Of a stretch of DNA of 64,000 nt, positions 9,337-64,000 are shown piece by piece (position 1 is the stretch's first letter; each line of letters begins with the position of its first letter). The position numbers were made by a program, and so were the translations under genes. The stretch spans positions 54,916 through 118,915 of the forward strand of contig JAJPHL010000035.1 of NCBI GenBank assembly GCA_021325275.1, read 5' to 3'. The DNA is from Terriglobia bacterium (lineage in GTDB: Bacteria; Acidobacteriota; Terriglobia; JAJPHL01). The notes beneath the pieces are model-generated. The model made no database searches, had not been told where the DNA came from, and saw nothing but the letters and a program-made list of their open reading frames with translations.

Positions 9337-10212
9337 TTATTTTTTCCCGATTCGTTTGGCGAGCGCCTCGCCCATTTCCGCCGGCGACTTCACCACGGTA
9401 ATCCCCGCCGCCGTCATCGCTTTCATCTTGTCTTCCGCCGTGCCCTTGCCGCCCGAAATGATCGCACCCGCGTGCCCCATCCGTCGTCCCGGCGGCGCGG
9501 TTTGTCCGGCGACAAATCCCACCACCGGCTTCTTCATGTGCTTCCCGACGTACTCGGCGGCCTGCTCCTCGCCGTTTCCGCCGATTTCGCCGATCATGAT
9601 CACGGCGTCGGTCTCGGGATCCTCGTTGAACAAGCGCATCGCGTCAATGTGCGTGGTGCCGATGATCGGATCGCCGCCAATGCCGATGCACGTCGATTGT
9701 CCGATGCCCAGCGCGGTCAGTTGACCCACGGCTTCGTACGTGAGCGTCCCGCTGCGCGACACGACGCCGACGCGTCCAGGCAAGTGAATGTGCCCCGGCA
9801 TGATTCCAATTTTGCATTTGCCCGGCGAGATAATGCCCGGACAATTCGGTCCAATGAGCCGCGACGACGTTTGCTTCAACACGGCGTGCGCGCGAACCAT
9901 GTCCATCGTGGGAATGCCTTCCGTGATGCAGACGATCAGGGGGATTCCGGCATCGGCCGCTTCCATGATCGCTTCCGCGGCGAACATCGGCGGAACGAAA
10001 ACCACGGACGCATTCGGCTGCACTTCACGCACCGCGTCGGCGACGGTGTTGAACACCGGCAAGCCTTCGTGTTTCGTGCCGCCTTTCCCGGGCGTCACGC
10101 CGCCGACCACTTTGGTTCCGTACGCGATCGCTTGCTGCGCATGGAACGTTCCTTCCTTGCCCGTGAATCCTTGCACCAGGAGGCGCGTGTTTTCGTTGAC
10201 CTGAATGCTCAT
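9337..10212 (-). CDS. sucD: Succinyl-CoA synthetase alpha subunit
   Basis: [32 protein letters not shown], active-site His loop SRSGTLTYE. Confidence 0.95.
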
Positions 10213-21176: not shown

Positions 21177-23306
21177 TTGGCACTGAAACTGTACGACGGA
21201 AAAGACATTCGCAACGTCGGAGTCGCTGGGCACGGCGGCTCCGGCAAAACCTCTTTGGTCTCCGCACTTCTTTATACCGCCGGTTCAGTCGACCGGCTGG
21301 GCCGCGTCGACGACGGCACGACCGTCACCGATTACGACGAAGAAGAGATTGCCCGCAAAGTATCGATCTCCACGGGCGTCGCGTACGCCGAATGGGCGGC
21401 CGGCGGCGGCAAGGTGAAAATCAACCTGCTCGACACACCCGGCTACAACATCTTTATCGGTGAAACGCGCGCCAGCATCGTGGCCGCCGATTCCGTGCTG
21501 GTGGTGGTCGACGCGGTGGCCGGCGTGGAAGTGCAAACGGAAAAAGTGTGGTCGTTCGCCGAAGAGTTCGGCCAGGCGCGCGCGCTGGTGGTGAATCGCC
21601 TGGATCGCGAGCGCGCTGGATTCGATCGCGCAGTGGAATCGATCCAAAACGCCTTCGGACGCGGCGCCGTGGCGATCCAGATGCCGCTGGGCGAGGAGAA
21701 AAATGCGCGCGGCATCGTGGACTTGATCGGTATGAAGGCGTACACCTACGATTCCGGCGGAAACGGCAAGGGTAAGGAAGAAGCGATACCCGCGAATCTG
21801 GCCGACGCCGCGCAAGCCGCACACGAAAAGCTGGTGGAAGCAGCGGCCGAAGGCGACGACGCGCTGCTCGAGGAGTTTTTCGACAAAGGAACATTGCCCG
21901 TCGAGCATATTGTCGACGGTTTGAAGAAAGCGATCGCCGCGGGACGTTTGTTCCCCATCCTGTGCGCGTGCGGCGGGAAGAATTTGGGCAGCGATCACAT
22001 CCTGAGTTTCCTCACGAACTTCATGCCGTCGGCCGCCGATCGCGGCACGGTGAAAGGCGCGGCCAAGCCGGGTGGAGAGCTCGACGTGACGCGCAAGATC
22101 ACCAACGACGAGGCGCTTTCCGTCTACGTTTACAAAACCGTCGCCGATCCCTTCGCTGGACGCCTGACGTACTTCAAAGTTCAATCGGGCGTGCTGAAAT
22201 CCGACGCCACGCTGACCAATTTCGTGCGCAGTTCGGAAGAACGCATGGCGCATATCGGTGTGCTTCTGGGAAAAGAGCAAGTACCGGTGCAGGAATTGCG
22301 CGCCGGCGATTTGGGCGTGGTCGCGAAATTGAAGGACACCGTGACCGGCGACACCCTGGGCGCGGTGAAGTCCACGCCGATTTTCTATCCGCCGGTGTCG
22401 CTGCCCGAGCCGCTGATCAAGTTCGCGATCGAAGCCAAGTCGCGTGCGGATGAAGATCGCATGGGCGTGGCGCTGCACAAGATTCTTGAGGAAGACCGGT
22501 CGCTGCGCTTCGAGCGCGATCCGCAAACCAAGGACTTTTTGCTCGGCGGATCGGGCCAGCAGCATATTGAAGTGATCGTTTCCAAGTTGAAGAAGCGCTA
22601 TCACGTCGAAGTGACGCTGAAAGCGCCGCGCGTGCCGTATCGCGAGACCATCCGCGGCAAGGCCGACGTGGAAGGGAAGCACAAGAAGCAGTCGGGCGGT
22701 CACGGACAATTCGGCGTTTGCAACGTGAAGATGGAGCCGTTGGTGCGCGGCGGTGGGTTCGAATTCGTCAACGACATTTTCGGCGGCTCGATCCCCAGGA
22801 ACTTCATTCCGGCGGTGGAAAAAGGCATCGTGGAATCGGCGGCGCGCGGCTATCTCGCGGGATTCCCGGTGGTCGATTTCAGGGCCACGGTCTATGACGG
22901 AAAGTATCACGACGTCGACAGCTCGGAAATGGCGTTCAAGATCGCCGGATCGCTGGCATTCAAGGCGGCAATGGCAGTCGCGAAACCGGTGTTGCTCGAG
23001 CCGGTGATGAACGTTGAAGTATACGCGCCCGACACGTACTCCGGCGATCTGATGGGCGATCTGAACTCGCGCCGCGGGCGAATCCAGGGCATGGACAACA
23101 AAGGATCGATGACGGTGATCCGCGCGCAGGTCCCAATGGCGGAAATGCTCACCTACGCCACCGATCTGACGTCAAAGACGCAGGGCCGCGCCAGTTATCA
23201 CATGGAATTCGACCATTACGACACGGTCCCCGGCCCGATCGCGGATAAGGTGATCGCCGCTGCGAAGGCCGCCAAGGCCGGTCAGGTCGAGCCGGAAGAG
23301 GAATAG
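21177..23306 (+). CDS. Elongation factor G paralog (EF-G2-like translational GTPase)
   Basis: Full five-domain EF-G architecture (DTPGY, NRLDR, G' domain, domain IV loop KKQSGGHGQFG). G1 P-loop is degenerate: GVAGHGGSGKT instead of AHIDAGKT. Apparent TTG start. Confidence 0.85.
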   Translation: MALKLYDGKDIRNVGVAGHGGSGKTSLVSALLYTAGSVDRLGRVDDGTTVTDYDEEEIARKVSISTGVAYAEWAAGGGKVKINLLDTPGYNIFIGETRASIVAADSVLVVVDAVAGVEVQTEKVWSFAEEFGQARALVVNRLDRERAGFDRAVESIQNAFGRGAVAIQMPLGEEKNARGIVDLIGMKAYTYDSGGNGKGKEEAIPANLADAAQAAHEKLVEAAAEGDDALLEEFFDKGTLPVEHIVDGLKKAIAAGRLFPILCACGGKNLGSDHILSFLTNFMPSAADRGTVKGAAKPGGELDVTRKITNDEALSVYVYKTVADPFAGRLTYFKVQSGVLKSDATLTNFVRSSEERMAHIGVLLGKEQVPVQELRAGDLGVVAKLKDTVTGDTLGAVKSTPIFYPPVSLPEPLIKFAIEAKSRADEDRMGVALHKILEEDRSLRFERDPQTKDFLLGGSGQQHIEVIVSKLKKRYHVEVTLKAPRVPYRETIRGKADVEGKHKKQSGGHGQFGVCNVKMEPLVRGGGFEFVNDIFGGSIPRNFIPAVEKGIVESAARGYLAGFPVVDFRATVYDGKYHDVDSSEMAFKIAGSLAFKAAMAVAKPVLLEPVMNVEVYAPDTYSGDLMGDLNSRRGRIQGMDNKGSMTVIRAQVPMAEMLTYATDLTSKTQGRASYHMEFDHYDTVPGPIADKVIAAAKAAKAGQVEPEEE

Positions 23307-62267: not shown

Positions 62268-63458
62268 ATGCCTGTGGAAACCGTGAAAATGAAGGCGCGC
62301 GGATTCATCTGCGTGAATTCGCATCCGGAAGGTTGCCGTCGCAACGTGGAGCGCCAAATCGACGTTGTGCGCGGCGCGGGAAAACGCGCCGGATTCAAGA
62401 ACGTGCTCGTTGTCGGCGCGTCCACTGGTTATGGACTCGCCAGTCGCATCGCTGCCGCGTGGGGATTCGGCGCGAAGACTCTCGGCGTGTTTTTCGAGCG
62501 ACCGCCCGAAGGCGGCAAGCCCGCCACCGCGGGATTCTACAACTCAGTGGCGTTTCACGACGCGGCGCGCCGGGGCGGTCTCTATGCCGCGAGCATCAAC
62601 GGCGACGCATTTTCCGACGGCGTGAAGAAGCAAGCCGTGGAAATCATCCGCCGCGGCATGGGCACGGTCGATTTGGTGATTTACAGTTTGGCGTCGCCGC
62701 GCCGCACGCATCCGAAAACGGGTGTGGTGTACAACTCGGCACTGAAACCGATTGGCGCGCCGTTCACTGCGCACACCATCGACCTGAATGCGGAAAAAGT
62801 TGTGGAAGTCACGATCCCGCCGGCCAGCGACGATGAGATCGCCGGCACGGTCGCGGTGATGGGCGGCGAAGATTGGCGCATGTGGATCCACACGCTGCTC
62901 GACGAGAAACTGTTGGCGCCCGGCGCCAGGACGGTGGCGTATTCCTACATCGGACCGTCGGTCACGTGGCCGGTTTATCGCGACGGGACAATTGGTCGCG
63001 CGAAGCAGGACCTGGAGGCCGCGGCCGCTGCGATGCGCGAGGGACTGGGCCAGAACGCCGCGTGGGTCGCGGTGAACAAAGCGGTGGTGACGCAAGCGTC
63101 GGCGGCGATTCCGGTTGTGCCGCTGTACATGAGTCTTTTGCCGCGCGTGATGAAGGCGAAGGGCCTGGAAGAAGGTTGTATCGAGCAAATGGCGCGCTTG
63201 TTCTTCGAGCACATCGCGCCCGATCGTACGCCCACGCTGGACGATGCGCGACGCATTCGCATGGACGATCGCGAGATGCGCGACGACGTGCAAAAAGAAG
63301 TCCTGCGTGATTTTCCAAGCATCACGACGGAAAACTTGCTCACGTCCACCGACTTTCCGAACTTCAAGCGGGAGTTTCAAGGCCTGTTCGGCTTCAACGT
63401 GGATGGCGTCGATTACACGCAACCTGTTGAGACTGACCTAGCGTTGGTAAATCCATAA
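62268..63458 (+). CDS. fabV: Enoyl-[acyl-carrier-protein] reductase (NADH), FabV / trans-2-enoyl-CoA reductase family
   Basis: RGFICVNSHPEGC, VLVVGASTGYGLASRIA, catalytic YSYIGP...K region; about 396 aa. Confidence 0.9.
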   Translation: MPVETVKMKARGFICVNSHPEGCRRNVERQIDVVRGAGKRAGFKNVLVVGASTGYGLASRIAAAWGFGAKTLGVFFERPPEGGKPATAGFYNSVAFHDAARRGGLYAASINGDAFSDGVKKQAVEIIRRGMGTVDLVIYSLASPRRTHPKTGVVYNSALKPIGAPFTAHTIDLNAEKVVEVTIPPASDDEIAGTVAVMGGEDWRMWIHTLLDEKLLAPGARTVAYSYIGPSVTWPVYRDGTIGRAKQDLEAAAAAMREGLGQNAAWVAVNKAVVTQASAAIPVVPLYMSLLPRVMKAKGLEEGCIEQMARLFFEHIAPDRTPTLDDARRIRMDDREMRDDVQKEVLRDFPSITTENLLTSTDFPNFKREFQGLFGFNVDGVDYTQPVETDLALVNP

Positions 63459-63462
63459 CGTT

Positions 63463-64000
63463 ATGAAACGCGTTCGCAAAATTCTCATGATTTTCGCCAT
63501 CGTTCTCGTCGTGCTCATCGCGATTCCAGCAGTGCTTTTCTGGAACGCGCAGCGCAGCTACGCTGCGGCGCATCTCAAAGCCGGCGATCGCGCGCCGGAA
63601 TTCGCGTTGCCCGATCAGAACGGACGCACCGTCCGCTTGGCCGATTACCTCGGGAAGAAGAACGTAGTTCTGGCGTTCTACATCAAGGCCAACACGCCTG
63701 GTTGAACGAAAGAAATGAAGGCGTATCAGGCTGATATCGCCAAACTGGAAGCCGCCGACACCGTGGTGATGGGATTGAGCGTCGATTCGAGCGCCGACAA
63801 TTTGAAATTCGCGAACGATGCAGGATTGAACATGCCGTTGCTTTCCGACACGTCGAAAGAAGTGAGCACGCGATATGGCGTGTTGAATCCCCTGCTGCGA
63901 TTTGCGAATCGCACCACGTTTGTGGTCGATAAGTCCGGCGTGATTCAACACGTCGATGCGGGCGGCGGCGCGGTGGATCCCACGGGCGCAGTGTCGGCAT
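63463..64000 (+). CDS. Membrane-anchored BCP/AhpC-TSA-family peroxiredoxin with in-frame UGA at the peroxidatic-Cys position; candidate selenoprotein, 3'-truncated by the window end
   Basis: TM anchor MKRVRKILMIFAIVLVVLIAIPAVLF. Prx motif GDRAPEFALPDQNGRTVRLADYLGKKNVVLAFYIKANTPG-[TGA 63703-63705]-TKE. The frame stays open to the window end, with further BCP-like sequence (VVMGLSVDSSADNLKFANDAGLNMPLLSD...YGV...RTTFVVDKSGVI). Confidence 0.6.
63720..63741 (+). promoter_or_regulatory. Candidate bacterial SECIS stem-loop (GGCGUAUC-AGGCU-GAUA[U]CGCC) 14 nt downstream of the UGA
   Basis: 8-bp stem with one bulged U and a 5-nt apical loop containing GG. Spacing from the UGA is within the range used by bacterial SelB-dependent elements. 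Confidence 0.3.

Follow-up and report, generated by a model that had tools for sequence, protein, structure and literature searches.

Sequence evidence for a probable membrane-anchored, extracytoplasmic selenocysteine peroxiredoxin in a Terriglobia bacterium

The window analysed here, a 64,000-nt stretch of contig JAJPHL010000035.1 from a Terriglobia bacterium (Acidobacteriota), ends within an open reading frame (ORF) of the AhpC/TSA fold that carries an in-frame TGA codon exactly where related proteins have their peroxidatic cysteine. Comparison with homologous genes leads us to conclude that this gene very probably encodes an extracytoplasmic selenocysteine (Sec) peroxiredoxin (Prx) of 188 residues, in which UGA81 would be decoded as Sec via a selenocysteine insertion sequence (SECIS). 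The features of the gene are as follows.

63463–64000, forward strand: candidate Sec-peroxiredoxin ORF of the AhpC/TSA fold, cut by the window edge
63463–63573, forward strand: predicted N-terminal signal-anchor, residues 1–37 (MKRVRK, a 21-residue hydrophobic stretch, then ...SYAAAH)
63694–63696, forward strand: Thr78 codon (ACG) of the TxxU/TxxC motif, invariant in alignment A1
63703–63705, forward strand: UGA codon of predicted Sec81, in the peroxidatic-Cys column (78 TGA and 4 TGC in 82 homologous genes)
63720–63741, forward strand: candidate bacterial SECIS hairpin within the coding sequence, encoding K-A-Y-Q-A-D-I-A
63910–63912, forward strand: Arg150 codon (CGC), the active-site Arg of the motif N-R-T-T-F-V-V-D, invariant in alignments A1 and A3
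64000, forward strand: first base (T) of the codon for Cys180, the candidate resolving Cys; the other two bases of this codon and the final 8 codons fall outside the window

The Prx gene opens with an ATG at 63463 and closes at a stop codon ~29 nt past the window end, in sequence taken from L001, a 175-kb JGI metagenome contig. Around the TGA the frame reads ...VVLAFYIKANTPG-TGA-TKEMKAYQ..., the upstream part ending in ...GKKNVVLAFYIKANTPG and the same frame resuming with TKEMKAYQADIAKLE... for 98 further codons up to the window edge. When the TGA is translated as Cys, the Pfam family AhpC-TSA (PF00578) matches residues 41–163 (E=3.1e-37, 127.7 bits against a cutoff of 26), meaning that the domain runs straight through the TGA, and the Redoxin family also matches (E=2.3e-23). 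Given that TGA is the stop codon of 11 of the 39 long ORFs in the window, the standard genetic code applies, and a reassignment of TGA in the host was ruled out. In public annotation the gene is stored as two genes of 80 aa and 104 aa (four assemblies), the second of which opens at an in-frame ATG, Met85.

Using the neighbouring FabV protein, we traced the same locus into L001, the NCBI metagenome-assembled genome (MAG) GCA_037024795.1 (L002), and two Logan assemblies made from two different SRA runs (L003 and L004). Over the Prx gene, L001, L003 and L004 match the window at every base, with the TGA kept, which disposes of the sequencing or assembly error that an earlier first-pass annotation of the window had wished to see excluded. 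The split into 80 aa and 104 aa is identical in all four (L001–L004).

We next placed 82 homologous genes in register, using the DNA of 80 Acidobacteriota species-representative genomes spanning Terriglobia, Pyrinomonadaceae/Blastocatellia and Bryobacterales. The codon in the peroxidatic column is TGA in 78 of these genes and TGC in the other four (L046, L063, L068 and L073), and the frame continues for 101–114 codons past this column in every homolog. Both halves are conserved as protein, with a median identity to the window protein of 63% before the TGA and 55% after it. Chance cannot explain the occurrence of a TGA at exactly the peroxidatic column in 78 of 82 homologs. Database homologs aligned with the window protein, including P0005, P0009, P0018 and P0021, have Cys in the Sec81 column.

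The protein search also returned many entries of ~100–109 aa that span the post-TGA half only, along with full-length entries bearing C or W at the catalytic column. The W forms are JGI/ENA gene calls (P0002–P0004, P0006–P0008, P0010, P0013, P0017 and P0020), and since the corresponding genome loci have TGA, they represent TGA read with another translation table. Evidently, a TGA=Trp table was applied to short contigs, an annotation artefact that hides selenoproteins. At least eight loci (L005, L006, L009, L013, L014, L017, L021 and L023) carry tandem Sec-Prx paralogs, both with TGA; the first is of an 'IKAFTPGU' type with an anchor-like N-terminus, resembling the window gene, and the second of a 'VLAFTGGU' type whose signal peptide looks cleavable. 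Only the 'IKAFTPGU' type is present at the window locus.

Published bacterial SECIS criteria call for an apical loop of 3–9 nt and an upper stem of 4–16 bp, a G in the first two loop positions (N1-G-[G|U]-N-N2), a UGA-to-loop distance of 16–37 nt and a minimum free energy of −7.5 kcal/mol or lower (PMC13188914). The hairpin that begins 14 nt past the UGA, GGCGUAUCA-GGC-UGAUA(U)CGCC, falls within all of these limits (A-GGC-U, 5+4 bp, 23 nt, −10.0 kcal/mol). It is built from a lower stem of 4 bp and an upper stem of 5 bp with a bulged U (63737) between them, and the apical GGC loop (63729–63731) is closed by an A-U pair. Taken alone, the 28-nt hairpin has a folding energy of −10.0 kcal/mol (z=−3.1), and 2 of 200 shuffles are at least as stable.

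The register of the hairpin is fixed in all TGA forms, so that 78 sequences, 77 of them distinct, align without gaps over the 9-bp structure, with 96.7% of cells paired. At four of the nine pairs both partners change in a compensatory manner, amounting to 21 cells; for instance, the third pair counted from the loop varies from U-A to C-G, and the bulge-adjacent pair from G-C to C-G or A-U. In 500 column shuffles this level was never attained, and pairing dropped to 13–63% when the 3′ arm was slid. Among the Cys forms, the hairpin is absent from L063, L068 and L073. The fourth, L046:4148 (a Bryobacteraceae MAG, TGC), keeps an intact SECIS-like hairpin, GGCAUACCAGGCUGGUAUUGCC, which looks like a fossil SECIS and would be consistent with a recent switch from Sec to Cys.

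The same contig holds a second candidate Sec codon. An operon for an FDH-N-type formate dehydrogenase (FDH; L001:12965-18409) starts ~1.2 kb downstream of the Prx gene, comprising an alpha subunit with a Tat signal (FdnG), an Fe-S subunit, a cytochrome b and FdhE. The FdnG gene contains a TGA ~1.8 kb past the Prx gene (ENQARV-TGA-HGPTVSSLGPTFGRGAMTN) that aligns residue-for-residue with Sec196 of E. coli FdnG (1KQF) and is directly trailed by a GGCCCCA/UGGGGCC stem with GGUC in the loop. This FDH SECIS region is no more stable than shuffles. As with the Prx gene, public annotation splits FdnG, in this case into 193 + 839 aa. In a related Terriglobia MAG (L022), a tRNA-Sec with anticodon UCA (ARAGORN; Rfam RF01852, 78.5 bits) lies at 9732-9826, 3.6 kb downstream of the TGA-Prx ortholog; selA and selB were not detected in this 12-kb locus. 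Acidobacteria have been listed as Sec users since 2006 (PMC1794560).

Much of what the first-pass annotation had read from the window alone is borne out by these comparisons: a TGA at the peroxidatic Cys of an AhpC/TSA ORF, a frame that stays open to the window edge so that the TGA is no real stop, and a hairpin 14 nt downstream with a GG-containing loop and a bulged U. Its central proposal, Sec recoding, now has behind it the pairing of Sec and Cys in one column, the covariation of the hairpin, the agreement of the assemblies and the TGA in the nearby Sec-type FdnG.

The residues that surround the TGA are those of a peroxiredoxin active site. Thr occurs at position −3 from the Sec/Cys column in all 82 homologs, and the motif T78-P-G-U81 is aligned with the peroxidatic Cys of the Cys homologs. 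Thr78 and Arg150 flank Sec81 as in peroxiredoxins generally.

The first-pass annotation had further called the protein a 1-Sec Prx lacking a resolving Cys, a call that proved to be an artefact of the window edge, given that most of the Cys180 codon lies outside the window. Codon 179 ends at 63999, and the full protein in L001 terminates in ...GAVSA-C-SRLGHRAD*. An equivalent of Cys180 is found in all 82 homologs, 98–105 residues past the Sec/Cys column (+99 in 73 of them), and in 80 of the 82 no other Cys follows the column. Conversely, the canonical cytoplasmic BCPs in the alignment (P0068, P0073 and P0081) have neither the signal nor the C-terminal Cys. A mechanism in which Sec and Cys act together to form a selenenylsulfide thus appears likelier than a 1-Sec mechanism. 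We modelled P0009, the closest Cys form, with AlphaFold2 (AF2; predicted local distance difference test score, pLDDT, 93.7), and in this model the C-terminal Cys lies in the last helix. The best PDB matches of the model were AhpE (template modelling, TM, scores of 0.88–0.91) and Sulfolobus Bcp1/Bcp4. The fold therefore resembles that of AhpE, with its single catalytic Cys, yet the second Cys is conserved in 82 of 82 homologs.

The N-terminus of the window protein is strongly anchor-like, with four K/R residues followed by 21 uncharged residues (mean Kyte-Doolittle 3.65 over 15 residues), and the predicted topology is N-in/C-out, with the catalytic domain outside the cytoplasm. The first-pass annotation had called this transmembrane anchor unusual for BCP proteins. 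While the anchor-like stretch is present, export signals are found throughout the subfamily: L001, L005:6217, L006:5441 and L010 form a subclade with uncleaved signal-anchor-like N-termini, most other members have classical signal peptidase I (SPase-I) signal peptides, and a Pyrinomonadaceae group has lipobox-like signals (...L-x-x-C-Q-K). Given that the homologs carry export signals, the catalytic domain is predicted to be extracytoplasmic across the family.

In the mechanism that we propose, the hairpin at 63720–63741 would act as a SECIS, recruiting SelB with Sec-tRNA(Sec) so that UGA81 is read as Sec and translation does not terminate. The signal-anchor would then insert the protein N-in/C-out, placing the AhpE/BCP-like Prx domain on the periplasmic side. 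By analogy with the mechanism of the peroxiredoxin family, the Sec81 selenolate, positioned by Thr78 and Arg150, would reduce H2O2 or an organic hydroperoxide and become a selenenic acid, which would most likely be resolved by Cys180 of the C-terminal helix to form a selenenylsulfide. A putative extracytoplasmic thioredoxin-like reductant may re-reduce the latter.

Several observations weigh against this reading. The 64-kb window and the adjoining 9.4 kb revealed neither tRNA-Sec nor SelA, SelB or SelD: ARAGORN and Rfam returned only a tRNA-Asn in the window, tblastn searches of the window and of every locus with the three E. coli proteins recovered no SelA or SelD, and upstream extension of the contig through the first gene of the window gave short contigs only. 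For this genome, we infer the Sec machinery solely from the neighbouring Sec-type FDH. Regarding the hairpin, the fold z-scores of 54–71-nt stretches after the UGA are not significant, and since only the isolated 28-nt hairpin beats shuffles, we rely on covariation and not on energy. The hairpin also overlaps the conserved peptide KAYQADIA, so coding constraint accounts for part of its nucleotide conservation. Further, the protein departs from the canonical PxxxTxxU motif (PMC13188914), with Ile at position −7 (motif at 63682–63705). Finally, a comparison of the neighbourhoods of the Prx loci revealed no universally conserved reductant gene.

The departure at position −7 is shared across the family. 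The other 77 TGA forms have V (66), I (10) or L (1) at this position and never Pro, and three of the four Cys forms have Pro. Because Thr, Sec and Arg are kept, we read the missing Pro as variation of the motif rather than as disappearance of the active site. Among the homologs, loss of Pro is coupled with the use of Sec.

An alternative that we consider unlikely is that the gene does encode a genuine selenoprotein, though one that scavenges no peroxide and is instead an anchored extracytoplasmic protein of the ResA/TlpA type. It would then work as a thiol/selenol-disulfide oxidoreductase or as a redox relay, for instance by reducing periplasmic proteins or by sensing peroxide and handing the oxidation on to a partner via Sec81 and Cys180. 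An N-terminal anchor joined to a periplasmic thioredoxin fold is indeed the ResA/TlpA architecture; the NCBIfam ResA subfamily model covers residues 3–167, including the anchor, at 63 bits, the TlpA, MauD and WAxxUGC models match weakly, the PDB entry for ResA (3c71) is a distant match, and a gene with a DsbA-like CxxC adjoins the homolog in eight Pyrinomonadaceae loci. However, the ResA score is far under the cutoff of 170, peroxiredoxins provide the top matches in Pfam, in the PDB and by fold, and the protein has a TxxU motif with invariant Thr78 and Arg150 in place of any CxxC/UxxC.

Considerably less probable is a non-Sec read-through of the UGA, by a near-cognate tRNA inserting Trp, Cys or Gly or through a local recoding signal, to give a full-length product free of selenium. 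The Sec machinery not having been seen in the sequence covered would accord with such an event, as would the JGI gene calls with W at the UGA codon. Against this, catalysis would be lost with Trp or Gly as the peroxidatic residue, the hairpin both fits the SelB-type SECIS consensus and co-varies, a Sec-type FdnG lies on the same contig, TGA serves as a normal stop elsewhere in the window, and the W calls, as noted, derive from the translation table used at loci that have TGA. We give almost no credence to the idea that the locus is a pseudogene, reflects a sequencing error or holds two real genes of 80 aa and 104 aa, despite the split made by gene callers in four assemblies with a second start at Met85, as the TGA is identical across independent datasets and occupies the same catalytic column in 78 genes of different species with both halves conserved, neither half alone makes a Prx fold, and the split would drop exactly the catalytic residue.

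Returning to the Sec peroxiredoxin, we compared the window protein with known families. No curated NCBIfam model reaches its cutoff with this protein. The top match is Bcp (NF006960; 92.3 bits against a cutoff of 140), followed at a distance by PrxU (NF040737; 48.7 against 270) and Prx-SUH (NF045827; 36.7 against 298), the last of which expects CxxU where the window protein has TxxU. The UxxC/CxxC pattern of ResA-TlpA and of Prx-like oxidoreductases is likewise missing, as the local sequence is G-U-T-K-E-M with no Cys within three residues. By these profile scores and motifs, the window protein belongs to an AhpE/BCP-like subfamily without an existing model and not to the PrxU type that the first-pass annotation had named.

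The nearest described selenoprotein is the reference Sec-Prx WP_011365628.1 of Geobacter metallireducens (PF00578/COG1225, Bcp-type), with 35% identity over 130 aa (E=3e-20). The two proteins have in common a TPGUTKE core, the AhpC/TSA fold and a SECIS hairpin after the UGA, and as in the window family, Cys-containing homologs of the Sec-Prx (TxxU) family are widespread. The Geobacter protein, however, is cytoplasmic, has no signal, retains the canonical Pro (FYPKDSTPGU) and lacks a conserved C-terminal Cys, whereas the window protein has a signal-anchor, Ile for Pro, a shorter loop before the Arg and the conserved C-terminal Cys.

In terms of structure, the closest solved fold is AhpE of M. 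tuberculosis (1XXU, 4X0X), with 36–38% identity to P0009, and the motif of the sister paralog, LAFTGG(U/C), resembles PLAFTGIC of AhpE. AhpE is a cytoplasmic Cys enzyme without a resolving Cys, while the Acidobacteriota family is predicted to be exported, mostly uses Sec and carries the Cys of the C-terminal helix. Among the BCP/PrxQ proteins (E. coli Bcp; Sulfolobus Bcp1/Bcp4, 3DRN/3HJP), which provide the best PDB sequence match (3drn, E=7e-22), the monomer size and the TPG-C/U-T-x-E motif are shared with the window protein. Two-Cys BCPs typically have their resolving Cys five residues after the peroxidatic Cys, and the window protein has no Cys at that place. In atypical 2-Cys peroxiredoxins of the Prx5 type, the resolving Cys resides in helix alpha5. 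By analogy, a candidate Cys in the last helix, ~100 residues on, suggests an intramolecular Se-S bond like the disulfide between the peroxidatic and resolving Cys, even though no specific sequence relationship between the Prx5 type and the window protein is detectable. The UxxC 'Prx-like thiol:disulfide oxidoreductase' (WP_010940744.1) is also a PF00578-related selenoprotein with a thioredoxin fold, but its family has UxxC and thioredoxin-like chemistry, in contrast to the TxxU of the window protein with no second Cys nearby.

In PrxU of Eubacterium acidaminophilum, as relayed in a later source, Sec similarly stands in for the peroxidatic Cys (Sohling et al. 2001, via PMC13188914). PrxU differs in belonging to a Prx1/AhpC-like subfamily (a model of ~233 positions, motif FTFVU), in being cytoplasmic and in coming from a strict anaerobe. 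Sec-containing Prx (TxxU) have been known since 2001 and are among the commoner bacterial selenoprotein families, with 12 genes reported in 2006 (PMC1794560), 43 from Sargasso Sea surface water (PMC1088965) and 91 genes from 78 organisms in a 2016 survey (PMC5029168). The statement of the first-pass annotation that such proteins are confined to a few anaerobes does not agree with the latter two surveys. No Solibacter Prx entry was found in the supplement of Zhang et al. 2006 under the names tried.

The literature searched contained no description of an exported or periplasmic peroxiredoxin with selenocysteine, nor of an exported Sec-Prx subfamily of Acidobacteriota with a C-terminal Cys. We tentatively suggest that the window gene might belong to an undescribed subfamily of peroxiredoxins exported by the Sec translocon, with a Sec/Cys pair and with selenocysteine, over Cys, as the default state. 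Such a subfamily would include anchored, soluble and lipoprotein forms, 78 of 82 with TGA, with frequent tandem duplication and the Pro lost in all Sec forms. It would extend over Terriglobia, Blastocatellia/Pyrinomonadaceae and related members of the Acidobacteriota, a phylum dominant in soil and largely aerobic. Its distinguishing features would be export, the C-terminal Cys, the change of Pro(−7) to V/I/L in the 78 Sec forms and Sec as the majority state.

If this subfamily reading is true, the extracytoplasmic peroxide defence of soil Acidobacteriota would depend on selenium supply, and there would be a counter-example to the published statement that selenoproteins are seldom kept by aerobic bacteria (PMC13188914). 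A selenium-dependent, outward-facing peroxide defence of this kind would link soil selenium availability to microbial stress tolerance, and the Prx together with the nearby Sec-FdnG would mark the organism as a selenium user. A natural, Pro-less, extracytoplasmic Sec/Cys Prx may also serve as a test case for the selection of Sec over Cys, one possible advantage of Sec being resistance to irreversible over-oxidation where reductant is scarce. In public databases, the window gene and dozens of its orthologs appear either as fragments of 80 aa and ~100 aa or with W in place of the catalytic residue, which makes Sec-Prx genes invisible to function-based surveys; a dedicated Sec-aware model would allow hundreds of gene calls in Acidobacteriota to be corrected. 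Current knowledge is not overturned by any of this. A selenoprotein of ordinary mechanism would not surprise a specialist in the field, and the value of the gene lies in annotation and soil selenium biology.

The gene immediately upstream of the Prx gene is fabV (enoyl-ACP reductase; 62268–63458, forward strand), which ends 4 nt before the Prx ATG. A pdxA-family gene (L001:11769-12713), which with fabV bounds the Prx gene, starts ~6 nt after the Prx stop on the same strand. This tight same-strand packing suggests that the three genes may be co-transcribed. The arrangement is not kept in other genomes. The recurrent neighbours of the Prx homologs are ClpB with a large membrane protein (13 loci) and a DsbA-like protein (8 Pyrinomonadaceae loci), a recurrence that looks like lineage synteny; several other apparent gene clusters near the Prx were rejected as antisense shadow ORFs. 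The Pyrinomonadaceae neighbour is an exported protein of ~530 aa that combines a SurA-like N-terminal part with a DsbA-like CxxC domain (FQCPSC) and is located ~1.1 kb downstream on the opposite strand in L040, L041, L043, L047, L051, L052, L055 and L069. It could be a redox partner of the Sec-Prx or reflect plain synteny.

In the tblastn searches with SelB, the sole weak match in the window (21216–21659) fell within the following gene and was rejected as the GTPase domain of an EF-G-like protein, not SelB.

21177–23306, forward strand: EF-G-like translational GTPase, 709 aa

Opposite the Prx gene lies an antisense ORF of 185 aa (63394–63951, reverse strand), a counterpart of which is present in 66 homologous loci. 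We regard it as a shadow ORF only, one that recurs because the sense strand is conserved.

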